Translations under genes and position numbers: made by a program | The notes under the pieces: model-generated | Seen by the model: the letters and a program-made list of their open reading frames with translations, nothing else | Databases searched by the model: none | What the model was told of the DNA's origin: nothing | DNA from: Candidatus Sulfomarinibacteraceae bacterium | Lineage (GTDB): Bacteria; Acidobacteriota; Thermoanaerobaculia; Thermoanaerobaculales; Sulfomarinibacteraceae | Length of the DNA: 64,000 nucleotides | Assembly (NCBI GenBank): GCA_963796455.1 | Contig: CAWCLO010000001.1 | Coordinates: 992,001-1,056,000, forward strand | Reading direction: 5' to 3' | Shown: positions 1,999 to 55,053 of the stretch, one piece after another | How the letters are laid out: the number at the start of each line of letters is the position of its first letter | Numbering within the stretch: the stretch's first letter is position 1

Positions 1999-3143
1999 AA
2001 ATCGCCACCACCTGCGTGCACGCCGGCCATCAACCGGATGACGAAACCGGTGCGATCAACGTCCCCATCTACGCCTCCTCGACCTACGCCTACCGGGAGT
2101 TTGGCGAGCACCGAGGTTGGGAGTATTCGCGCACCGGGAACCCGACGCGAAATACCCTCGAACGGGCGATGGCCGAACTCGAGGGTGGGGCCGACGGTAT
2201 TGCCTTCGCCTCCGGGCTCGCCGCCATCGACGCGATCACCGATCTGCTCGAAGCGGGTGATCACATCGTCGCGGCCGACAATCTCTATGGCGGGACCTAT
2301 CGTCTTTTGACCACGACGACCGAAGGCCACGGCATACCCGTCAGTTTTGTCAACGCGGCAGACACCGAGGCCTTCCGAGACGCCTGCTCCGAACGTACCC
2401 GGCTGATATTTGTCGAGACCCCCACCAACCCACTCATGCAACTCGTCGATCTGGCGGCGGTAGCCGCGATCGCCAAGGGTTGCGGCGCCATGTTGGTGGT
2501 GGACAACACTTTTCTCACGCCGGTATTGCAACGACCGATCGATTTCGGCGCCGATCTCGTAGTGCATTCGACCACCAAATATCTCAACGGGCACTCCGAT
2601 GGTGTCGGTGGCGTGGTCGTGACCCGCAACCCCGAACTCGGCGAGCGCCTGCACACGGTCCAGAACAACGTCGGCGCCATCCTCGGGCCCTTCGACGCCT
2701 ATCTGGTCCTGCGTGGTTTGAAGACTCTGGCCATCCGGATGGCAACCCATGAATCCAACGCCCGGAACCTGGCCGGATTCCTGCTCACCCGCAGCGAACT
2801 CGTTTCGCTGCGATACCCCGGCCTCGCCAACCACCCGCAGCACCAACTGGCGCGCCAACAACAATCGGGATTCGGCGGCATGATTTCCTTCGATCTCGGT
2901 TCGCTTGAAAAGGCGCGCGCCTTTTGCAATGCCGTCGAGATCTTCACGCTTGCCGAATCACTCGGCGGTGTGGAGTCTTTGGTATGCCACCCGGCGACGA
3001 TGACCCATGCTTCGGTGCCAACCGAAGAACGGGAACGAATCGGGATCGGCGAAGGCCTGGTCCGGCTGTCGGTTGGTATCGAGCATGCGAGTGATCTCGA
3101 GGTGGATCTCACCCGCGCCCTCGACGCCGCCGCTCAGTTTTGA
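1995..3143 (+). CDS. Cystathionine gamma-lyase/synthase (Cys/Met metabolism PLP enzyme, MccB/MetB-like)
   Basis: YSRTGNPT, ETPTNP, HSTTKYLNGHSD, LAESLGGVESL; TTG start at 1995 overlaps upstream stop, GGAGG RBS. Confidence 0.9.
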   Translation: MKIATTCVHAGHQPDDETGAINVPIYASSTYAYREFGEHRGWEYSRTGNPTRNTLERAMAELEGGADGIAFASGLAAIDAITDLLEAGDHIVAADNLYGGTYRLLTTTTEGHGIPVSFVNAADTEAFRDACSERTRLIFVETPTNPLMQLVDLAAVAAIAKGCGAMLVVDNTFLTPVLQRPIDFGADLVVHSTTKYLNGHSDGVGGVVVTRNPELGERLHTVQNNVGAILGPFDAYLVLRGLKTLAIRMATHESNARNLAGFLLTRSELVSLRYPGLANHPQHQLARQQQSGFGGMISFDLGSLEKARAFCNAVEIFTLAESLGGVESLVCHPATMTHASVPTEERERIGIGEGLVRLSVGIEHASDLEVDLTRALDAAAQF

Positions 3144-3232
3144 GTTATGAGTTTTGAGTTATGAGTTGAGAACCCGATATTTGGGTGGCGACTGGTAACT
3201 CAAAACTCAAAACTCAACTCTCAAAACTCAAA
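3136..3232. repeat. Inverted heptamer tandem array: (AGTTWTG)x~5, 26-bp spacer, (AACTCAA)x~5
   Basis: Left arm 3136-3170, right arm 3197-3232, between convergent genes; includes the upstream gene's TGA stop. Confidence 0.92.
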
Positions 3233-3249
3233 CCTCGGCCCGGGAGCCT

Positions 3250-7779: not shown

Positions 7780-8290
7780 CAAAACTGTCCAAAACAAATC
7801 AACATGTGAAGTTTCCCAACTGACAACACGTGGTTTACGAGTTGGTTTTTGGCATTTCCGGTTCGCGGTTGCCCCGCGCCCGCGTCCGTTTCCGGAATGG
7901 AGCGGCAGCGACAGGGACAGGAACCGGCGAACAGGGACAGCGATCAGTGATCAGGTGCAGCGATCAGGTGCAGCGACGGCGTGGCCACCACCGGGTCGTT
8001 CAACAGAAGGGGTAGCCGGTGGGCGGCCGAGTTGGTAGAGACCGGTCGAACCACTGGAGAATCGCCTACGCCTCGGCCAAAGGGGTCGACAGCCACTTGC
8101 AGCTCCTCGCCCACGCCGGGGCGATCAGCCCGAACGGAGCCAGTGAAGCGATGAACGCCTTCGATCAGGTCCGTGCGATGACCTGGCGCCTCTTGAACCC
8201 GAAAATGTGAGCGCTGGTCGCTGCCGCTGTCTGCTGTTCCCCTGTCGCTGTCCCTGAATCTTGTCCGAGACACTATCTTGGACAACAGTG
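7780..8290 (+). mobile_element. Copy A of TIR-bounded four-helix-bundle element (internally deleted)
   Basis: Ends CAAAACTGTCCAAAACAA ... TCTTGGACAACAGTG, flanked by AT/AT; shares TGACAAC...CATTTCCGGTTCGC and CAGCGR arms with the 48.9 and 54.0 kb copies. Confidence 0.8.
8024..8210 (+). pseudogene. 3' half of four helix bundle gene
   Basis: GRVGRDRSNHWRIAYASAK...AFDQVRAMTWRLLNPK nearly identical to the C-terminal half of 54319-54672. Confidence 0.9.
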
Positions 8291-9690: not shown

Positions 9691-10192
9691 AATTCGGAGT
9701 TCGGGCGGAGTTCGGAGTTCGGAGTTCGGAGTTCGGAGTTCGGAGTTCGGAGTCACTCTAGTCCAAGACAACGTCTCGGACAGCGTCCAGGGGCAGGGAA
9801 GAGCAAACAGCGACGGCGAACAGCCGCCCATGACGCGATGAAGGCGTTCGACCAGGTCCGTGCCATGACTTGGCGGCTGTTGAATCCGAAGGAGTGAGTG
9901 CTGTCTGCTGTCGCTGACCGCTGTCCCTGTTCGCTGCTGCCTGTCGCTGACGCTGGACACTGTCGCTGCCGCTGCAATTCGGGATTGGGATCGGGTACGG
10001 GCCAATCGCGAACAGGATATGTCAACAACCAACCAGTCAACCTCGGGTTGTCACATGGGCAACTTCACGTGGCGAACAGGATATGACAGCAGTGGTTCGG
10101 AGTTCTGAGTTCGAAATGCCGTCGACCCACCCCGGGGACCATGGCGTTCCGATCGATCGCAGTTTGCAATCCCGAATTCCGAATTCCGAACT
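9691..10192. repeat. Inverted heptamer array (GGAGTTC)n ... (CCGAATT)n, left arm interrupted by element copy B
   Basis: Six perfect GGAGTTC units at 9707-9748; array resumes at 10095-10113; inverted arm at 10168-10192. Confidence 0.88.
9754..10094 (-). mobile_element. Copy B of TIR-bounded element (shell on minus strand, gene remnant on plus strand)
   Basis: CACTCTAGTCCAAGACAA ... GACAGCAGTG, GT/GT duplication; 10008-10067 is the reverse complement of the conserved left end; remnant AMKAFDQVRAMTWRLLNPKE* within 9820-9897. Confidence 0.82.
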
Positions 10193-10197
10193 TTGAC

Positions 10198-10836
10198 CTA
10201 GCCCTCATCCAGCGAACGGTGATACTCGTGCTCCCAGTCGTTCCACCATTCCTTCTCGATGCCGCCGCAGGTCACGGCAAAGGCCGAACATGCAACGCAG
10301 CCGTCGCCACGAATGGCATCCTCGTCATCGAGGGGAGGGAACCGCTCGATCAGTTCTTCACCGAGAACACGGGCGGCTTCCTCGGCGGGTTCTGGCGGCC
10401 GACCCTCGAGGCGGGCGACTCCGCCGCGTATCAGGCGTTGCTTCGCTTCAGGGAAAATGACGCTGTCTTCCTTGTCCAGGTGCTCCCACAGATGATGGGC
10501 GATGCGTCGGGCGATCTCAGGAGCTCTGTCAGGGTCTTTCGCAGCCGCCTCGAGCTCGACGACCATCGCCTCCGACTCGCGGTGTTCGGCATTCATGATG
10601 GCGATCGGCCCACGATCTCCGGGCACCTCGGCGCGTTCGACGAGAATGGGGAAAAGGACTTTTTCTTCACGCTCATGGTGGTAGCCACCAATATAGACCC
10701 TTAGAACGCGAACGAAATCGTCAACATCAGAACTGGAGACAGCCCCCTCCTTCGAGCGTTCCGCGAGGCGCACCAGCGATCCTGCCAGTCGATCAACGAG
10801 ACGGTGTTCGGCTTCGAACTCCTCGAAAAGCTTCAT
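10198..10836 (-). CDS. Hemerythrin-domain protein with C-terminal Cys-rich motif
   Basis: AEHRLV, YHHEREEKVLFP, AEH, EHLDKEDSVIFP; C-terminal GCVACSAFAVTC. Confidence 0.8.
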   Translation of the reverse strand: MKLFEEFEAEHRLVDRLAGSLVRLAERSKEGAVSSSDVDDFVRVLRVYIGGYHHEREEKVLFPILVERAEVPGDRGPIAIMNAEHRESEAMVVELEAAAKDPDRAPEIARRIAHHLWEHLDKEDSVIFPEAKQRLIRGGVARLEGRPPEPAEEAARVLGEELIERFPPLDDEDAIRGDGCVACSAFAVTCGGIEKEWWNDWEHEYHRSLDEG

Positions 10837-13117: not shown

Positions 13118-13195
13118 GAGTTTTGAGGTCTGAGTTTTGAGTTTTGAGTTGAGGAACCGTCATCAGTGGTGGTGGAACTCAAAACTCAGACCTGA
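13118..13195. repeat. Inverted heptamer array (GAGTTTT)n ... (AAAACTC)n
   Basis: Left arm 13118-13153, right arm 13176-13195; same unit as 3136-3232. Confidence 0.88.
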
Positions 13196-15676: not shown

Positions 15677-16032
15677 CACTCTTGTCCAATACAGGGTTGC
15701 GGACCGCGATCAGGGACGGCGACAGCGATCAGCGTCAGCGACAGCGTTCAGTGGTCAGCGGCAGCGACCAGCCACCGGGGCAGCGTCAGCGTCGGCGAAC
15801 AGCCCTTACTGGTCGGGTTCAAGAGCCGCCAGGTCATCGCTCGGACCTGATCGAAGGCGTTCATCGCGTCGCGGGCGGCTGTCGCACTGATCGCCCCGGG
15901 GGTGGCCTCGCCGTCACTGCACCTGATCGCTGTTCTCTGTCGCTGTCCCTGTTCGCTGTTGCCTGTCGCTGGCGCTGGCGCTGAACACTGTCGCTGCCGC
16001 TGCAATTCGGGATCAAGATCGGGATCGGGACC
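15677..16032 (-). mobile_element. Copy C of TIR-bounded element (internally deleted, left end lost)
   Basis: CACTCTTGTCCAATACAG preceded by AT; CAGCG arms; minus-strand remnant GAISATAARDAMNAFDQVRAMTWRLLNP at about 15810-15899. Confidence 0.8.
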
Positions 16033-16129: not shown

Positions 16130-16172
16130 AGATCCTTCGACTCGGTCGCGAAGCTCCCTCGCTCAGGATGAC
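16130..16172. repeat. REP-like unit AGATCCTTCG...CGCTCAGGATGAC
   Basis: Resembles the GTCATCCTGAGCG...CGAAGGATCT extragenic repeat type (my recognition, not database-checked); single copy here. Confidence 0.6.
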
Positions 16173-16208
16173 ATCAGGCGGTGTAGCCTCGGCCAGCACC
16201 GCCTCATG

Positions 16209-16301
16209 TCATCTGCGTGATCTGCGGTTTGTGATGGGATCCGATGCGATGGAATTCCCAATTCCCAATTCCCAATTCCTAATTCCTAATTCCTAATTCC
16301 T
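16209..16301. repeat. ATCTGCG-repeat module plus heptamer array (AATTCCC)3(AATTCCT)4
   Basis: TCATCTGCGTGATCTGCGGTTT identical at 20083-20104; heptamers at 16253-16301. Confidence 0.85.
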
Positions 16302-19974: not shown

Positions 19975-20070
19975 CACAGCTGTCCAGGACACGGGCGACA
20001 GCGACAGGAAGCGGCAAACAGGGACAGGTATCAGAGGTCCGCGGCAGCGACAGTGTTCAGCGCCAGCGAT
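19975..20070. mobile_element. Copy D: one TIR plus CAGCG arm of the four-helix-bundle element
   Basis: CACAGCTGTCCAGGACAC matches the TIR consensus; GCGGCAGCGACAGTGTTCAGCG matches the arm of other copies. Confidence 0.65.
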
Positions 20071-20074
20071 CGTT

Positions 20075-20167
20075 ATCTGCGCTCATCTGCGTGATCTGCG
20101 GTTTCTCCTGTGATGGGTGAACGAGAATCCGAAATCCGAAATCCGAAATCCGAAATTCCTAATTCCT
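20075..20167. repeat. ATCTGCG-repeat module plus heptamers (AATCCGA)4(AATTCCT)2
   Basis: Read directly; parallels 16209-16301. Confidence 0.85.
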
Positions 20168-20178
20168 AGTTCTCCTAC

Positions 20179-48910: not shown

Positions 48911-48931
48911 CCCGGATACACGATCTGAGAT

Positions 48932-49375
48932 CACTGCTGCCCGAAACAAATCGTCGATGAAGTTGCAAACTTGACAACTCGAGGTTGAGTGGTTGGTTTT
49001 TGGCATTTCCGGTTCGCGGTTGCCCGCGCCATATTTCGATTCCGTCTCAGTGCCCGACTTGCAGCGACTGCGACGGTATTCAGCGCCAGCGACAGTGTCC
49101 AGCTTCAGCGGCAGGGAACAGCGATCAGGTCCAGCGACGGCGTGGCAACCTCCGGGCTGTTCAACAAAAGGAACAGCCGTTGTGGTGTATGCGTCTCGCC
49201 TGCACACCGTGCGGCCGAGACGGCCGCACTACAAAGACCGAAGCCCCGAAGGAATGAGTGCTGTTCGCTGTCCCGGTCGCTGATCGCTGTCGCTGATGAC
49301 TGACCGCTGCCGCTGACTGCTGTTCGCTGACGCTGTCCCTGGACGCGGTCAGAGACACCGCACTGAACAGGAGTA
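48932..49375 (+). mobile_element. Copy E of TIR-bounded element (gene replaced by REP doublet)
   Basis: CACTGCTGCCCGAAACAA ... CTGAACAGGAGTA, AT/AT flanks; conserved left end and both arms; only CCGAAGGAATGA of the gene remains. Confidence 0.8.
49180..49234. repeat. Inverted GTRG-type REP doublet (REPIN-like)
   Basis: GTGG plus imperfect hairpin (49182-49205); GTAG plus perfect TGCGGCCG-TCT-CGGCCGCA hairpin on minus strand (49209-49232). Confidence 0.75.
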
Positions 49376-49390
49376 ATCCAAGAACCAAGA

Positions 49391-53429: not shown

Positions 53430-54001
53430 CTCATATGCCATCATCACTGGCCGGTAGCATCCTGATTGCAATGCCGGGTCTCGCCGACCCGAATTTTTGG
53501 CATTCGGTGGTGTTGCTTGGAGTGCATTCGGACGAGGAGGGGGCCTTCGGGCTTGTGATCAACCGAAGCCTCGACGTCAATCTCGACGTGATTCTGGACG
53601 AACTTGGCGAAGAACCGGTGGGTTCCGATGTTCCAGAAGTTCTGGCGGGCGGCCCGGTGCAACCGGGCCACGGATTTGTACTTTTTGAACGCGGGGTGGC
53701 GATACCCGATGACGACGATATCGAGATCTCCGATTCGCTGGTTGTCTCTGGCAACACCGAGACCCTGACCCGGCTGGCCCACGGAGGCGGCGAAAACCGC
53801 TTCTCCCTGCTGCTTGGATATTCGGGATGGCACCCAGGTCAGCTCGAGCGCGAGATCGAAGAAAACTCGTGGGTCGTGGCACCGCTGGACAAATCGATCA
53901 TTTTTGATGTGCCGGTGGAGGATCGCTGGACCGCCGCGCTGAGGTCGATTGGTGTAGATCCCGGGACCCTGGTGGATACCGGATCCAGCGAACCGAGCTG
54001 A
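53426..54001 (+). CDS. YqgE/AlgH family protein
   Basis: LIAMPGLADPNF, GAFGLVINR, GGPV, GYSGWHPGQLEREI. Confidence 0.92.
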   Translation: MTHMPSSLAGSILIAMPGLADPNFWHSVVLLGVHSDEEGAFGLVINRSLDVNLDVILDELGEEPVGSDVPEVLAGGPVQPGHGFVLFERGVAIPDDDDIEISDSLVVSGNTETLTRLAHGGGENRFSLLLGYSGWHPGQLEREIEENSWVVAPLDKSIIFDVPVEDRWTAALRSIGVDPGTLVDTGSSEPS

Positions 54002-54839
54002 CACACACGGTTTTCGGGTCGATTTTCGACATTTCCGGTTCGCCTTTGCCCCGTGTTCGCGGCCATATTGCAGCGGCAGCGACAGTGTCCAGCGTCAGCG
54101 ACAGGAACAGCGAACAGGGACAGCGGTCAGTGTTCAGCGACGGAGAGCAGCGGCAGCGGTCAGGAGTACAGGCGACGAAGTGGCCACCTCCGAGTCGTTC
54201 AACAGAAAGGGGTAGCCGGTGGGCGGCCGATGTCAAGGACAGGCAGGGTGCAGGGCATCCTTGACATCGGCCACCACACCGGCTTGTGGGTATGGGCATG
54301 AACGACCCGGAGGTGACCATGTCCAACGCCGCCACGAACACCAACCTCATTGCCCACTCGAAAGCCCTCGAAGCAGCAGGAATCGCGATCAAACTCGTGA
54401 TGAGAGTTCCCGCTCCGCTGAAATCCATAGCCGATCAGGTGATCCGGTCGGCAAGTTCAGTCCCTGCTAACTTGGCGGAAGGGCACGGCCGAGTCGGTAG
54501 AGACCGGTCGAACCACTGGAGAATCGCCTACGCCTCGGCCAAAGAGGTCGACAGCCACTTGGAGCTCCTCGCCCGCGCCGGGGCAGTCAGCCCCAATGGC
54601 GCCAGTGAAGCGATGAATGCCTTCGATCAGGTCCGTGCCATGACCTGGCGATTGCTCAACCCAAAGTCTTGATTTCAGGGCTCCATACCAGTCAAACGTG
54701 ACGCTGACTACTGTTCGCTGGCCGCTGTCCCTGAACGCTGCTACCTGTCGCTGCCCCTGACTCCTGTTAACTGACGCCGTCTGCCGTTCCCCGTGGCTGT
54801 CCCTGAACGTTTTCCGAGCCACCGTCTCGAACAAGGGTG
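53999..54839 (+). mobile_element. Copy F of TIR-bounded element with intact cargo gene (outer ~40 bp of left end absent)
   Basis: TGACAC...CATTTCCGGTTCGC, CAGCG arm at 54069-54165, hairpin, ORF, CGCTG arm at about 54700-54806, end TCTCGAACAAGGGTG. Confidence 0.8.
54319..54672 (+). CDS. Four helix bundle protein (TIGR02436 / 23S rRNA IVS protein family), 117 aa
   Basis: DQVIRSASSVPANLAEGHGR...WRIAYASAKEV matches the family's Q.RRAA.S...NIAEG..R...IA.GS..E pattern; GGAGG RBS at 54309. Confidence 0.9.
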   Translation: MSNAATNTNLIAHSKALEAAGIAIKLVMRVPAPLKSIADQVIRSASSVPANLAEGHGRVGRDRSNHWRIAYASAKEVDSHLELLARAGAVSPNGASEAMNAFDQVRAMTWRLLNPKS

Positions 54840-54851
54840 GCTCTTGCCAAC

Positions 54852-54880
54852 AAAAACGCCCGGCTGCGTTCAGCCGGGCG
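54852..54880 (-). terminator. Intrinsic terminator
   Basis: CGCCCGGCTG-4nt-CAGCCGGGCG perfect stem followed by TTTTT on the minus strand. Confidence 0.8.
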
Positions 54881-55018
54881 ATGTTTGAATCGGGAGGGTC
54901 GGTTCCGCCAATTAGGTAGGAAAAGACGATGGGAAATGTGGCAGGCCTTTAAAGGTTGGCCTTTATCGGCAGGTTTCAAGGTGGTCAGCTTCCCCGGACC
55001 CCTCCCTTTCTCAATTGA
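54852..55018 (-). ncRNA. Candidate ~165-nt small RNA
   Basis: Own promoter-like sequence, 5'/3' closing stem GGGAGGG/CCCTCCC, terminator; no convincing ORF. Confidence 0.4.
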
Positions 55019-55024
55019 TGCCTG

Positions 55025-55053
55025 ATCATAACACGCAGCCCGAACGGAGTCCA
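55025..55053 (-). promoter_or_regulatory. Sigma70-type promoter candidate
   Basis: TGGACT-17bp-TATGAT with extended -10 TG. Confidence 0.55.

Follow-up and report, generated by a model that had tools for sequence, protein, structure and literature searches.

The question raised by this locus is how a small IVS-type gene comes to lie, in many copies, between the protein genes of a single genome. To our knowledge, IVS-type four-helix-bundle proteins are widespread and their function is not known, and the movement of their genes has so far been a guess. In the window analyzed here, a stretch of 64,000 nucleotides, a first-pass annotation had described six intergenic loci (A to F) as transposase-less elements sharing all or part of one architecture, with terminal inverted repeats (TIRs), inverted arms, a long hairpin and a four-helix-bundle gene. 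Locus F sits between algH and a terminator. Its parts, and the five other loci, are as follows:

53999..54070, plus strand: terminal remnant of F, a "long" end derived from an IS4 right end (IRR), minus the terminal repeat; it abuts the stop codon of an algH-like gene
54071..54166, plus strand: left arm of F, degenerate CAG-initiated units of 6-7 bases; pairs with the right arm
54180..54321, plus strand: conserved leader stem-loop of F; the ribosome-binding site and start codon are paired in the outer stem, and the inner stem covaries
54319..54672, plus strand: intact gene of F for a 117-aa four-helix-bundle protein (PF05635 / TIGR02436)
54698..54807, plus strand: right arm of F, inverted relative to the left arm
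54808..54839, minus strand: "short" end of F, derived from an IS4 left end (IRL), with the terminal repeat at 54822-54839
7780..8290, plus strand: locus A, with two ends, an internal deletion of 262 bp that extends from the hairpin to codon 57, and a gene remnant at about 8025-8211
9754..10094, plus strand: locus B, with the two ends exchanged with respect to the gene remnant (about 9817-9897)
15677..16032, minus strand: locus C, with short end, arms and a C-terminal gene remnant (about 15808-15906); the long end is truncated
19975..20070, plus strand: locus D, a solo degenerate end and one arm; the gene is absent
48932..49375, plus strand: locus E, of a gene-less subfamily, with long end, arm, 5' third of the leader, a doublet that we take to be REP-like, arm and decayed short end

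The seven end sequences quoted in that annotation are found at 7780, 8273-8290 (reverse complement), 9754, 15677, 19975, 48932 and 54822-54839 (reverse complement), and the 117-aa reading frame at 54319-54672 had been correctly recognized as a four-helix-bundle gene (PF05635, E 5e-15; TIGR02436, E 6.5e-16). The gene is intact in F only, A, B and C retain C-terminal remnants, D and E have no gene, and F is without its left TIR, its sequence beginning where the algH-like gene upstream ends with its stop codon. In E, the doublet (about 49179-49236) occupies the place of the gene. B is flanked by a perfect 9-bp duplication (9745-9753 and 10095-10103) that lies within a 7-base array, E by a decayed one (48923-48931 and 49376-49384), and the flanking 9-mers of A match at 5/9 positions.

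The six loci belong to a much larger family. The present assembly (G000) is a metagenome bin of 5.02 Mb in 10 contigs with 90.5% completeness, and a nucleotide search that used the leader together with the gene detected 166 loci in it, namely 65 near-full, 35 partial and 66 leader-only loci, so that 101/166 are partial or gene-less. A protein search (tblastn) gave 106 matches, 59 of which span residue 1 to at least residue 114. With a 19-bp end matrix, trained on 50 of the same ends, 261 matches above 14 bits were obtained, compared with 7 in the reversed genome, and only 2/224 strong ends fall inside genes as called by a simple in-house gene finder. Intact copies are enriched between convergent genes (22/59 versus 367/2333 gaps, p = 9e-5), and between co-directional neighbors the intact gene is antisense in 20 cases and sense in 8 (p = 0.036). 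None of the 77 end pairs with a spacing below 1 kb encloses a transposase, and PF05635 is the sole gene that they contain. The copies have a mean identity of 89% and no two are identical, which is why jumping in this genome is probably not recent. The broader idea that such a cassette accounts for the dispersal of four-helix-bundle genes in general is weakened, since the assembly contains four other genes of this kind (C4:1278094-1278408, C1:983149-983445, C9:2726-3031 and C10:733004-733315), which are single-copy and divergent, are accompanied by inverted arrays of their own 6-8-base unit, and on reading have no IS ends.

The evidence for mobility comes from the ends and their flanks. There are two end types, long and short, with the first 18-19 bases in common. 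Across the 77 end pairs, the match between flanks peaks at length 9 (0.77 versus 0.51 permuted), and the flanking 9-mers agree at 8 or 9 of 9 positions in 39 pairs (permuted mean 8.5, maximum 18); imperfect duplications are common, with 38/77 pairs agreeing at 7 or fewer positions. Because most flanks are 7-base arrays, the analysis was repeated on the 23 pairs whose flanks are not of the main array type, where identity at length 9 is 0.68 versus 0.32 permuted (0/2000) and other lengths give no comparable peak; these pairs and the permutation rule out that the 9-bp match is a 7 + 2 by-product of the arrays. In a second genome, G006, perfect 9-mers flank 12 of the 20 copies that were fetched out of 48 matches. 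Direct observation also extends to empty sites. The element is missing from all 20 orthologs of locus F that were retrieved within the genus: the distance from the algH stop codon to the next conserved block is 32-286 bases in 19 of them versus 885 here, one reaches a contig end, and several carry other repeats at the same spot. For E, a contig of a related strain (run X6) joins 48922 to 49376 and thereby skips 453 bases, which corresponds to E (444) plus one 9-mer, and another contig joins 54003 to 54848; the evidence from X6 consists of single contigs at a depth of about 5. The proposal that this is an abundant mobile cassette whose ends are sharply defined by CACT...AGTG, and the expectation of empty orthologous sites, are both borne out.

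One could object that the family, or the mosaicism of its copies described below, is an artifact of assembling a metagenome bin, as the 90.5% complete assembly has 10 contigs and none of the listed sequencing runs holds half of the region's words. We regard this as very improbable. The architecture, the ends and the duplications recur in G006 and other genomes, mis-mapping should homogenize copies rather than leave them at the divergence reported above, and the joint of the 262-bp deletion, at a 7-base microhomology, is reproduced in the independent runs X1 and X2.

Whose ends these are became apparent from a genus-wide search with the end pattern, which was positive in 14/25 genomes and gave one long pair, in G017. 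This pair bounds an intact 1411-bp element (L021) that encodes an IS4-family transposase (NF033592, E 1e-74, above cut-off; DUF4372 and DDE_Tnp_1 domains), and the translation contains a complete Y-x2-R-x3-E-x6-K motif. The right end of L021 (IRR) equals the long end of the cassette over the first 18 bases, a subterminal motif is common to both, and the left end (IRL) resembles the short end. L021 itself has no target duplication. Among 18 autonomous homologous loci, examined out of 41 returned, perfect 9-bp duplications are seen in six, of which four come from a single genome, so that the duplication length agrees with that of the cassettes; the asymmetric end pair is found in four further loci of the 18, and homologs that have it occur in other phyla. 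Judged from sequence, the cassette ends are thus the ends of an IS4-family insertion sequence, and the longer element with the same TIRs and a transposase, for which the first-pass annotation had recommended a search, exists in this genus. The statement that no transposase is present is correct for the window itself and also for the assembly to the extent that it was searched; the IS family to which the ends belong is nevertheless a known one.

The partner IS4 transposase was not found in searches of G000 (90.5% complete) and G006; it is present in 3/61 related genomes and in 1/24 other genomes of the genus. Several further candidates were rejected. An IS50/Tn5-type partner, considered because of a resemblance of the ends, would require PF14706, which occurs in 0/25 genus genomes. 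IS256 (PF00872), ISL3 (PF01610) and DUF4372 (PF14294) have no match in the assembly, and the sole PF01609 gene there has its own, different ends. The same assembly contains three copies of what we take, from the translation, to be an IS91-like element, together with a single DDE transposase that has terminal repeats of its own (C6:37096-38933, C7:279899-281563, C7:285081-286913 and C7:291077-292150).

Mobilization in trans, which had been suggested as one of two options, is supported, the candidate partner being an IS4-family DUF4372 transposase. In our model, an IS4 transposase would recognize the ends and insert the cassette in trans at AT-bounded 9-mers, and the intergenic 7-base arrays would supply such 9-mers every 7 bases; 72 of the 163 arrays of the commonest type in the assembly contact an end. 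The partner would since have been lost from this genome or left unassembled, which fits the absence of identical copies, and the protein would not be needed for the jump itself. We consider this combination highly probable. With the vehicle named by its IS4 ends, the 9-bp duplications and an intact partner in a relative, mobility is directly testable.

A precedent is the mobile insertion cassette MIC231, for which two IS4-family inverted repeats, no transposase gene, a coding sequence inside, a length of about 850 bp and movement in trans are described (PMC6199540). Paired IS4-family ends, the absent transposase gene and a passenger coding sequence are common to both, and by definition our element is a mobile insertion cassette, with movement in trans being proposed; its IS4 ends, 9-bp duplications and empty sites are the reasons to assume that it works like one. 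The differences are that the ends here are of the DUF4372-type IS4 kind, with CA termini and a 9-bp duplication, whereas IS231 has CAT ends and 10-12 bp, and that there are dozens of copies with an IVS-type gene, a structured leader and inverted arms, for which ISL3 ends are used as well. Within the IS4 family, the subgroup IS4Sa is characterized (De Palmenaer 2008, PMC2266710) by CA ends, T at position 9, a length of 1150-1750 bp, an 8-10 bp duplication and a complete YREK motif. L021 fits with its CA ends and T at position 9, 1411 bp, YREK motif and homologs with 9-bp duplications, an assignment by end and size features rather than by a transposase tree, and the window elements themselves are without transposase. 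Bacterial MITEs are described (PMC9330008) as non-autonomous, multi-copy, intergenic elements with short terminal repeats that are mobilized in trans. This description suits the 66 leader-only loci including E, but not the 65 gene-bearing loci including F, in which a near-full gene is under purifying selection.

This brings us to the gene. A gene-less subfamily with one shared interior comprises 62 loci in the assembly, and 13/21 of its paired members have duplications at 8 or 9 of 9 positions; conversion could also have spread the shared interior. The gene is not required in each copy for spread, and the suggestion that the jump is driven by the small protein itself is weakened, because the gene-less subfamily is as numerous as the intact copies and bears 9-bp duplications. 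Nevertheless, strong purifying selection acts on the gene. Copies diverge from the majority by 0.163 at 4-fold sites and by 0.029 at 0-fold sites (0.074 and 0.014 with rare variants only), the non-coding ends have drifted by 0.06-0.10, and stop codons occur in 1/59 copies versus about 31 expected at the age of the family, in a choice of 59 copies that excluded frameshifted ones (at most 6/65). This constraint cannot be assigned to each resident copy, because nine internally deleted copies are equally constrained (0-fold divergence 0.022 versus 0.017 in intact copies, p = 0.43), and a release of selection was not seen in these nine. Either the deletions are recent and recurrent at the 7-base microhomology, or conversion refreshes the remnants.

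One explanation for such a pattern is that the gene is passive cargo that helps or burdens the host, and that its product is a homo-oligomer, so that copies with missense changes would spoil the ring and be removed by selection, whereas deleted copies would be tolerated. It agrees with the frequency of deletions (the 101/166 loci mentioned above) and the rarity of missense and nonsense changes, and a Xanthomonas homolog is a homopentamer (PMC4990558). The equal constraint on deleted remnants speaks against it, as do the pairing of the leader with the ribosome-binding site, the range of 0 to 85 matches per genome within the genus, and the lack of any defense match in PADLOC. We consider this explanation rather doubtful.

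The relation among the copies adds a further aspect. Four gametes are present in 450/465 pairs of common sites, linkage is gone by 60 bases, and inter-copy distances in the three thirds of the gene are unrelated (r 0.05-0.08). Recurrent mutation on a star tree is a likely source of four gametes for rare variants only, not for 31 sites at 15-32/59 copies, and the free assortment of a three-base marker at codon 3 relative to markers further downstream also counters this reading. The copies are recombination mosaics. An ordinary MITE might then suffice as an explanation, if only a few copies were functional and selected, or if selection preceded capture, and RecA-type gene conversion among the 160 repeats spread the sequence. 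The mosaicism down to about 60 bases and the constrained appearance of the remnants can be understood in this way, and also the poor duplications of swapped and short-short end pairs, of which 1/7 agree at 8 or more of 9 positions. Yet the 59 haplotypes over the 31 common sites all differ, and conversion has therefore not homogenized the family; it would also have to hit coding sites far more than the ends, which drifted by 6-10%. That conversion of this kind explains the family by itself appears possible but not probable to us.

As to what the protein may bind, the leader deserves attention. The long hairpin and the inverted arms of the first-pass annotation were both confirmed: the leader folds at z = -7.8, with 0/200 shuffles as good, and the arms pair in the fold of the whole element (z = -6.3, 20 shuffles). 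The leader is a nested stem-loop whose outer stem occupies the ribosome-binding site and the start codon. Two-sided changes are found at 17/45 pairs (23 sequences; 0/500 shuffles), although covariation in inverted repeats can stem from arm-to-arm copying without selection on structure. In two loci of G006 (L002 and L004), the inner stem is swapped for unrelated sequence, apparently a hairpin too, and the outer stem is kept.

The predicted model of the 117-aa protein consists of four helices (pLDDT 93.5), and in a structural search it comes closest to the S23p proteins 2RLD and 2GSC (Z 17.1 and 16.4), followed by Avd (Z 14.2 and 13.6). The fold in common with Avd that had been pointed out is therefore seen in the model, but the match is weak when taken alone, because talin reaches Z 13.9 in the same fold search. 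Avd is a pentamer of which all five subunits grip an RNA stem-loop (bioRxiv 10.1101/2023.10.23.563531), and Avd groups with PF05635 (PMC10053308), which makes the leader the best candidate ligand. As for the role of the protein, we infer from this analogy that it may bind its own leader. It would likely form a ring on the leader stem-loop of its own cassette, as Avd does in diversity-generating retroelements, and recombination between copies would keep refreshing resident copies from functional ones and would let the cassette change its end types. We put this pair of assumptions forward tentatively, at somewhat less than an even chance.

The analogy concerns the fold and the conserved stem-loop beside the gene, at an identity of about 10%, and does not extend to the system. 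No reverse transcriptase gene lies beside F, and PF00078 has 0 matches in G000 (90.5% complete); adenine-biased variation was not seen among 109 singleton changes, of which 21 are from A and 43 from C, and no pair of template and variable repeats was seen. The element is not a diversity-generating retroelement. Nor is it an rRNA intervening sequence, even though ORF-bearing intervening sequences of 23S rRNA encode S23p (PMC4990558), and the protein family, the fold and the position of the gene within complementary arms able to form a long stem are the same. Here, the copies are dispersed between protein genes and have IS ends and target duplications, and the window has no rRNA match in Rfam.

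The cassette is not confined to IS4 ends. Leader, gene and arms are also present in 18/24 other genomes of the genus, and in four of them (G008, G005, G014 and G020) the cassette lies in different ends, which match those of an intact ISL3 element (L115). Twenty ISL3-type pairs, chosen for carrying both ends, show a duplication peak at 8 bp (0.81 versus 0.70 permuted, 0/2000). In a tree of 52 genes, which used 9/59 copies of this assembly and left out 14 near-identical G006 copies, 19/20 IS4-ended genes fall on one branch (support 89/93) nested among ISL3-ended genes; the IS4-ended branch is not starred, the root is a midpoint root, and the ISL3 rows from metagenomes had been chosen on the basis of their ends. 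It is likely that the cassette predates its IS4 ends and that the cargo changed its vehicle from ISL3 to IS4. Given IS4 ends here and unrelated ISL3 ends in relatives, it is also likely that the cassette spreads by hitch-hiking on whatever transposase is available. In G040, from another family, there are 42 matches with direct 6-base arrays, often as head-to-head intact and diverged copies (L179, L194, L242 and L245-L247), and a few of them adjoin ends of an HUH (Y1) transposase, which we regard as no more than a lead to a third vehicle. What is new is that one hairpin-plus-gene cassette occurs in IS4 ends (9 bp) here and in ISL3 ends (8 bp) in other species; we found no account of such cargo in IS ends in a search of mainly open-access papers.

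These observations bear on the possibility that the protein aids the spread of its own cassette, for example if it binds the leader hairpin and stimulates copying into other repeats, in a selfish unit for which IS ends are interchangeable. The unit is conserved over two families of the order, with separate expansions (85, 48, 44 and 39 matches), and is housed in IS4 ends, ISL3 ends and perhaps beside HUH-transposase ends; the purifying selection agrees with it, as does the unrestricted shuffling between copies, and the antisense excess (20 versus 8) does not suggest selection for expression by host read-through. On the other hand, the 62 gene-less copies have spread too, with near-perfect duplications in 13 of the 21 paired ones, and the protein family is without a known catalytic motif or partner enzyme. 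We would not count on this possibility. The same caution applies to its widest form, which we offer as a speculation: the unit of hairpin and four-helix-bundle gene might be a selfish passenger that hops between unrelated transposase ends (ISL3, IS4, perhaps HUH-type), its protein would bind its own leader and favor copying or recombination of the cassette, and the copies would form a recombining population under selection. If true, the large IVS-protein family would gain both a function and a way of spreading.

Our model of insertion in trans explains the movement well, and what is surprising is the likely switch from one vehicle to another, together with the fact that selection acts on a gene that is dispensable and much recombined. 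The use of at least two unrelated IS families shows a cargo that outlives its vehicle, and it is unusual for transposon cargo that some 60 diverged copies are kept intact though they are dispensable for jumping. The set of copies represents a natural mutational scan of the protein, next to a covarying stem-loop as candidate ligand.

Other cargo occurs in such ends as well. IS4-ended and ISL3-ended miniature elements in relatives (L022-L032 and L165-L171) carry REP-like palindromes or 9-base arrays, so that both kinds of ends have taken up other intergenic repeats more than once. Arrays with units of 7-8 bases flank the autonomous IS4 and ISL3 copies (L021, L112, L113 and L115) as well. In the window, gene-less 7-base arrays or array hairpins of several unit types occupy intergenic gaps (3136-3236, 13118-13195, 9691-9753, 10153-10200, 16238-16300 and 20125-20172). 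Beside C and D there are other palindromic or 9-base-period repeats (16130-16175, 16210-16228 and 20075-20102), which resemble repeats that adjoin GIY-YIG and GxxExxY nuclease genes. Rfam gave no match at gathering level over the window, only weak hairpin matches by E-value. Past the terminator that follows F, a conserved non-coding block (54873-55033), also without an Rfam match, is 83% identical in G007 and resembles a 6S-type RNA.
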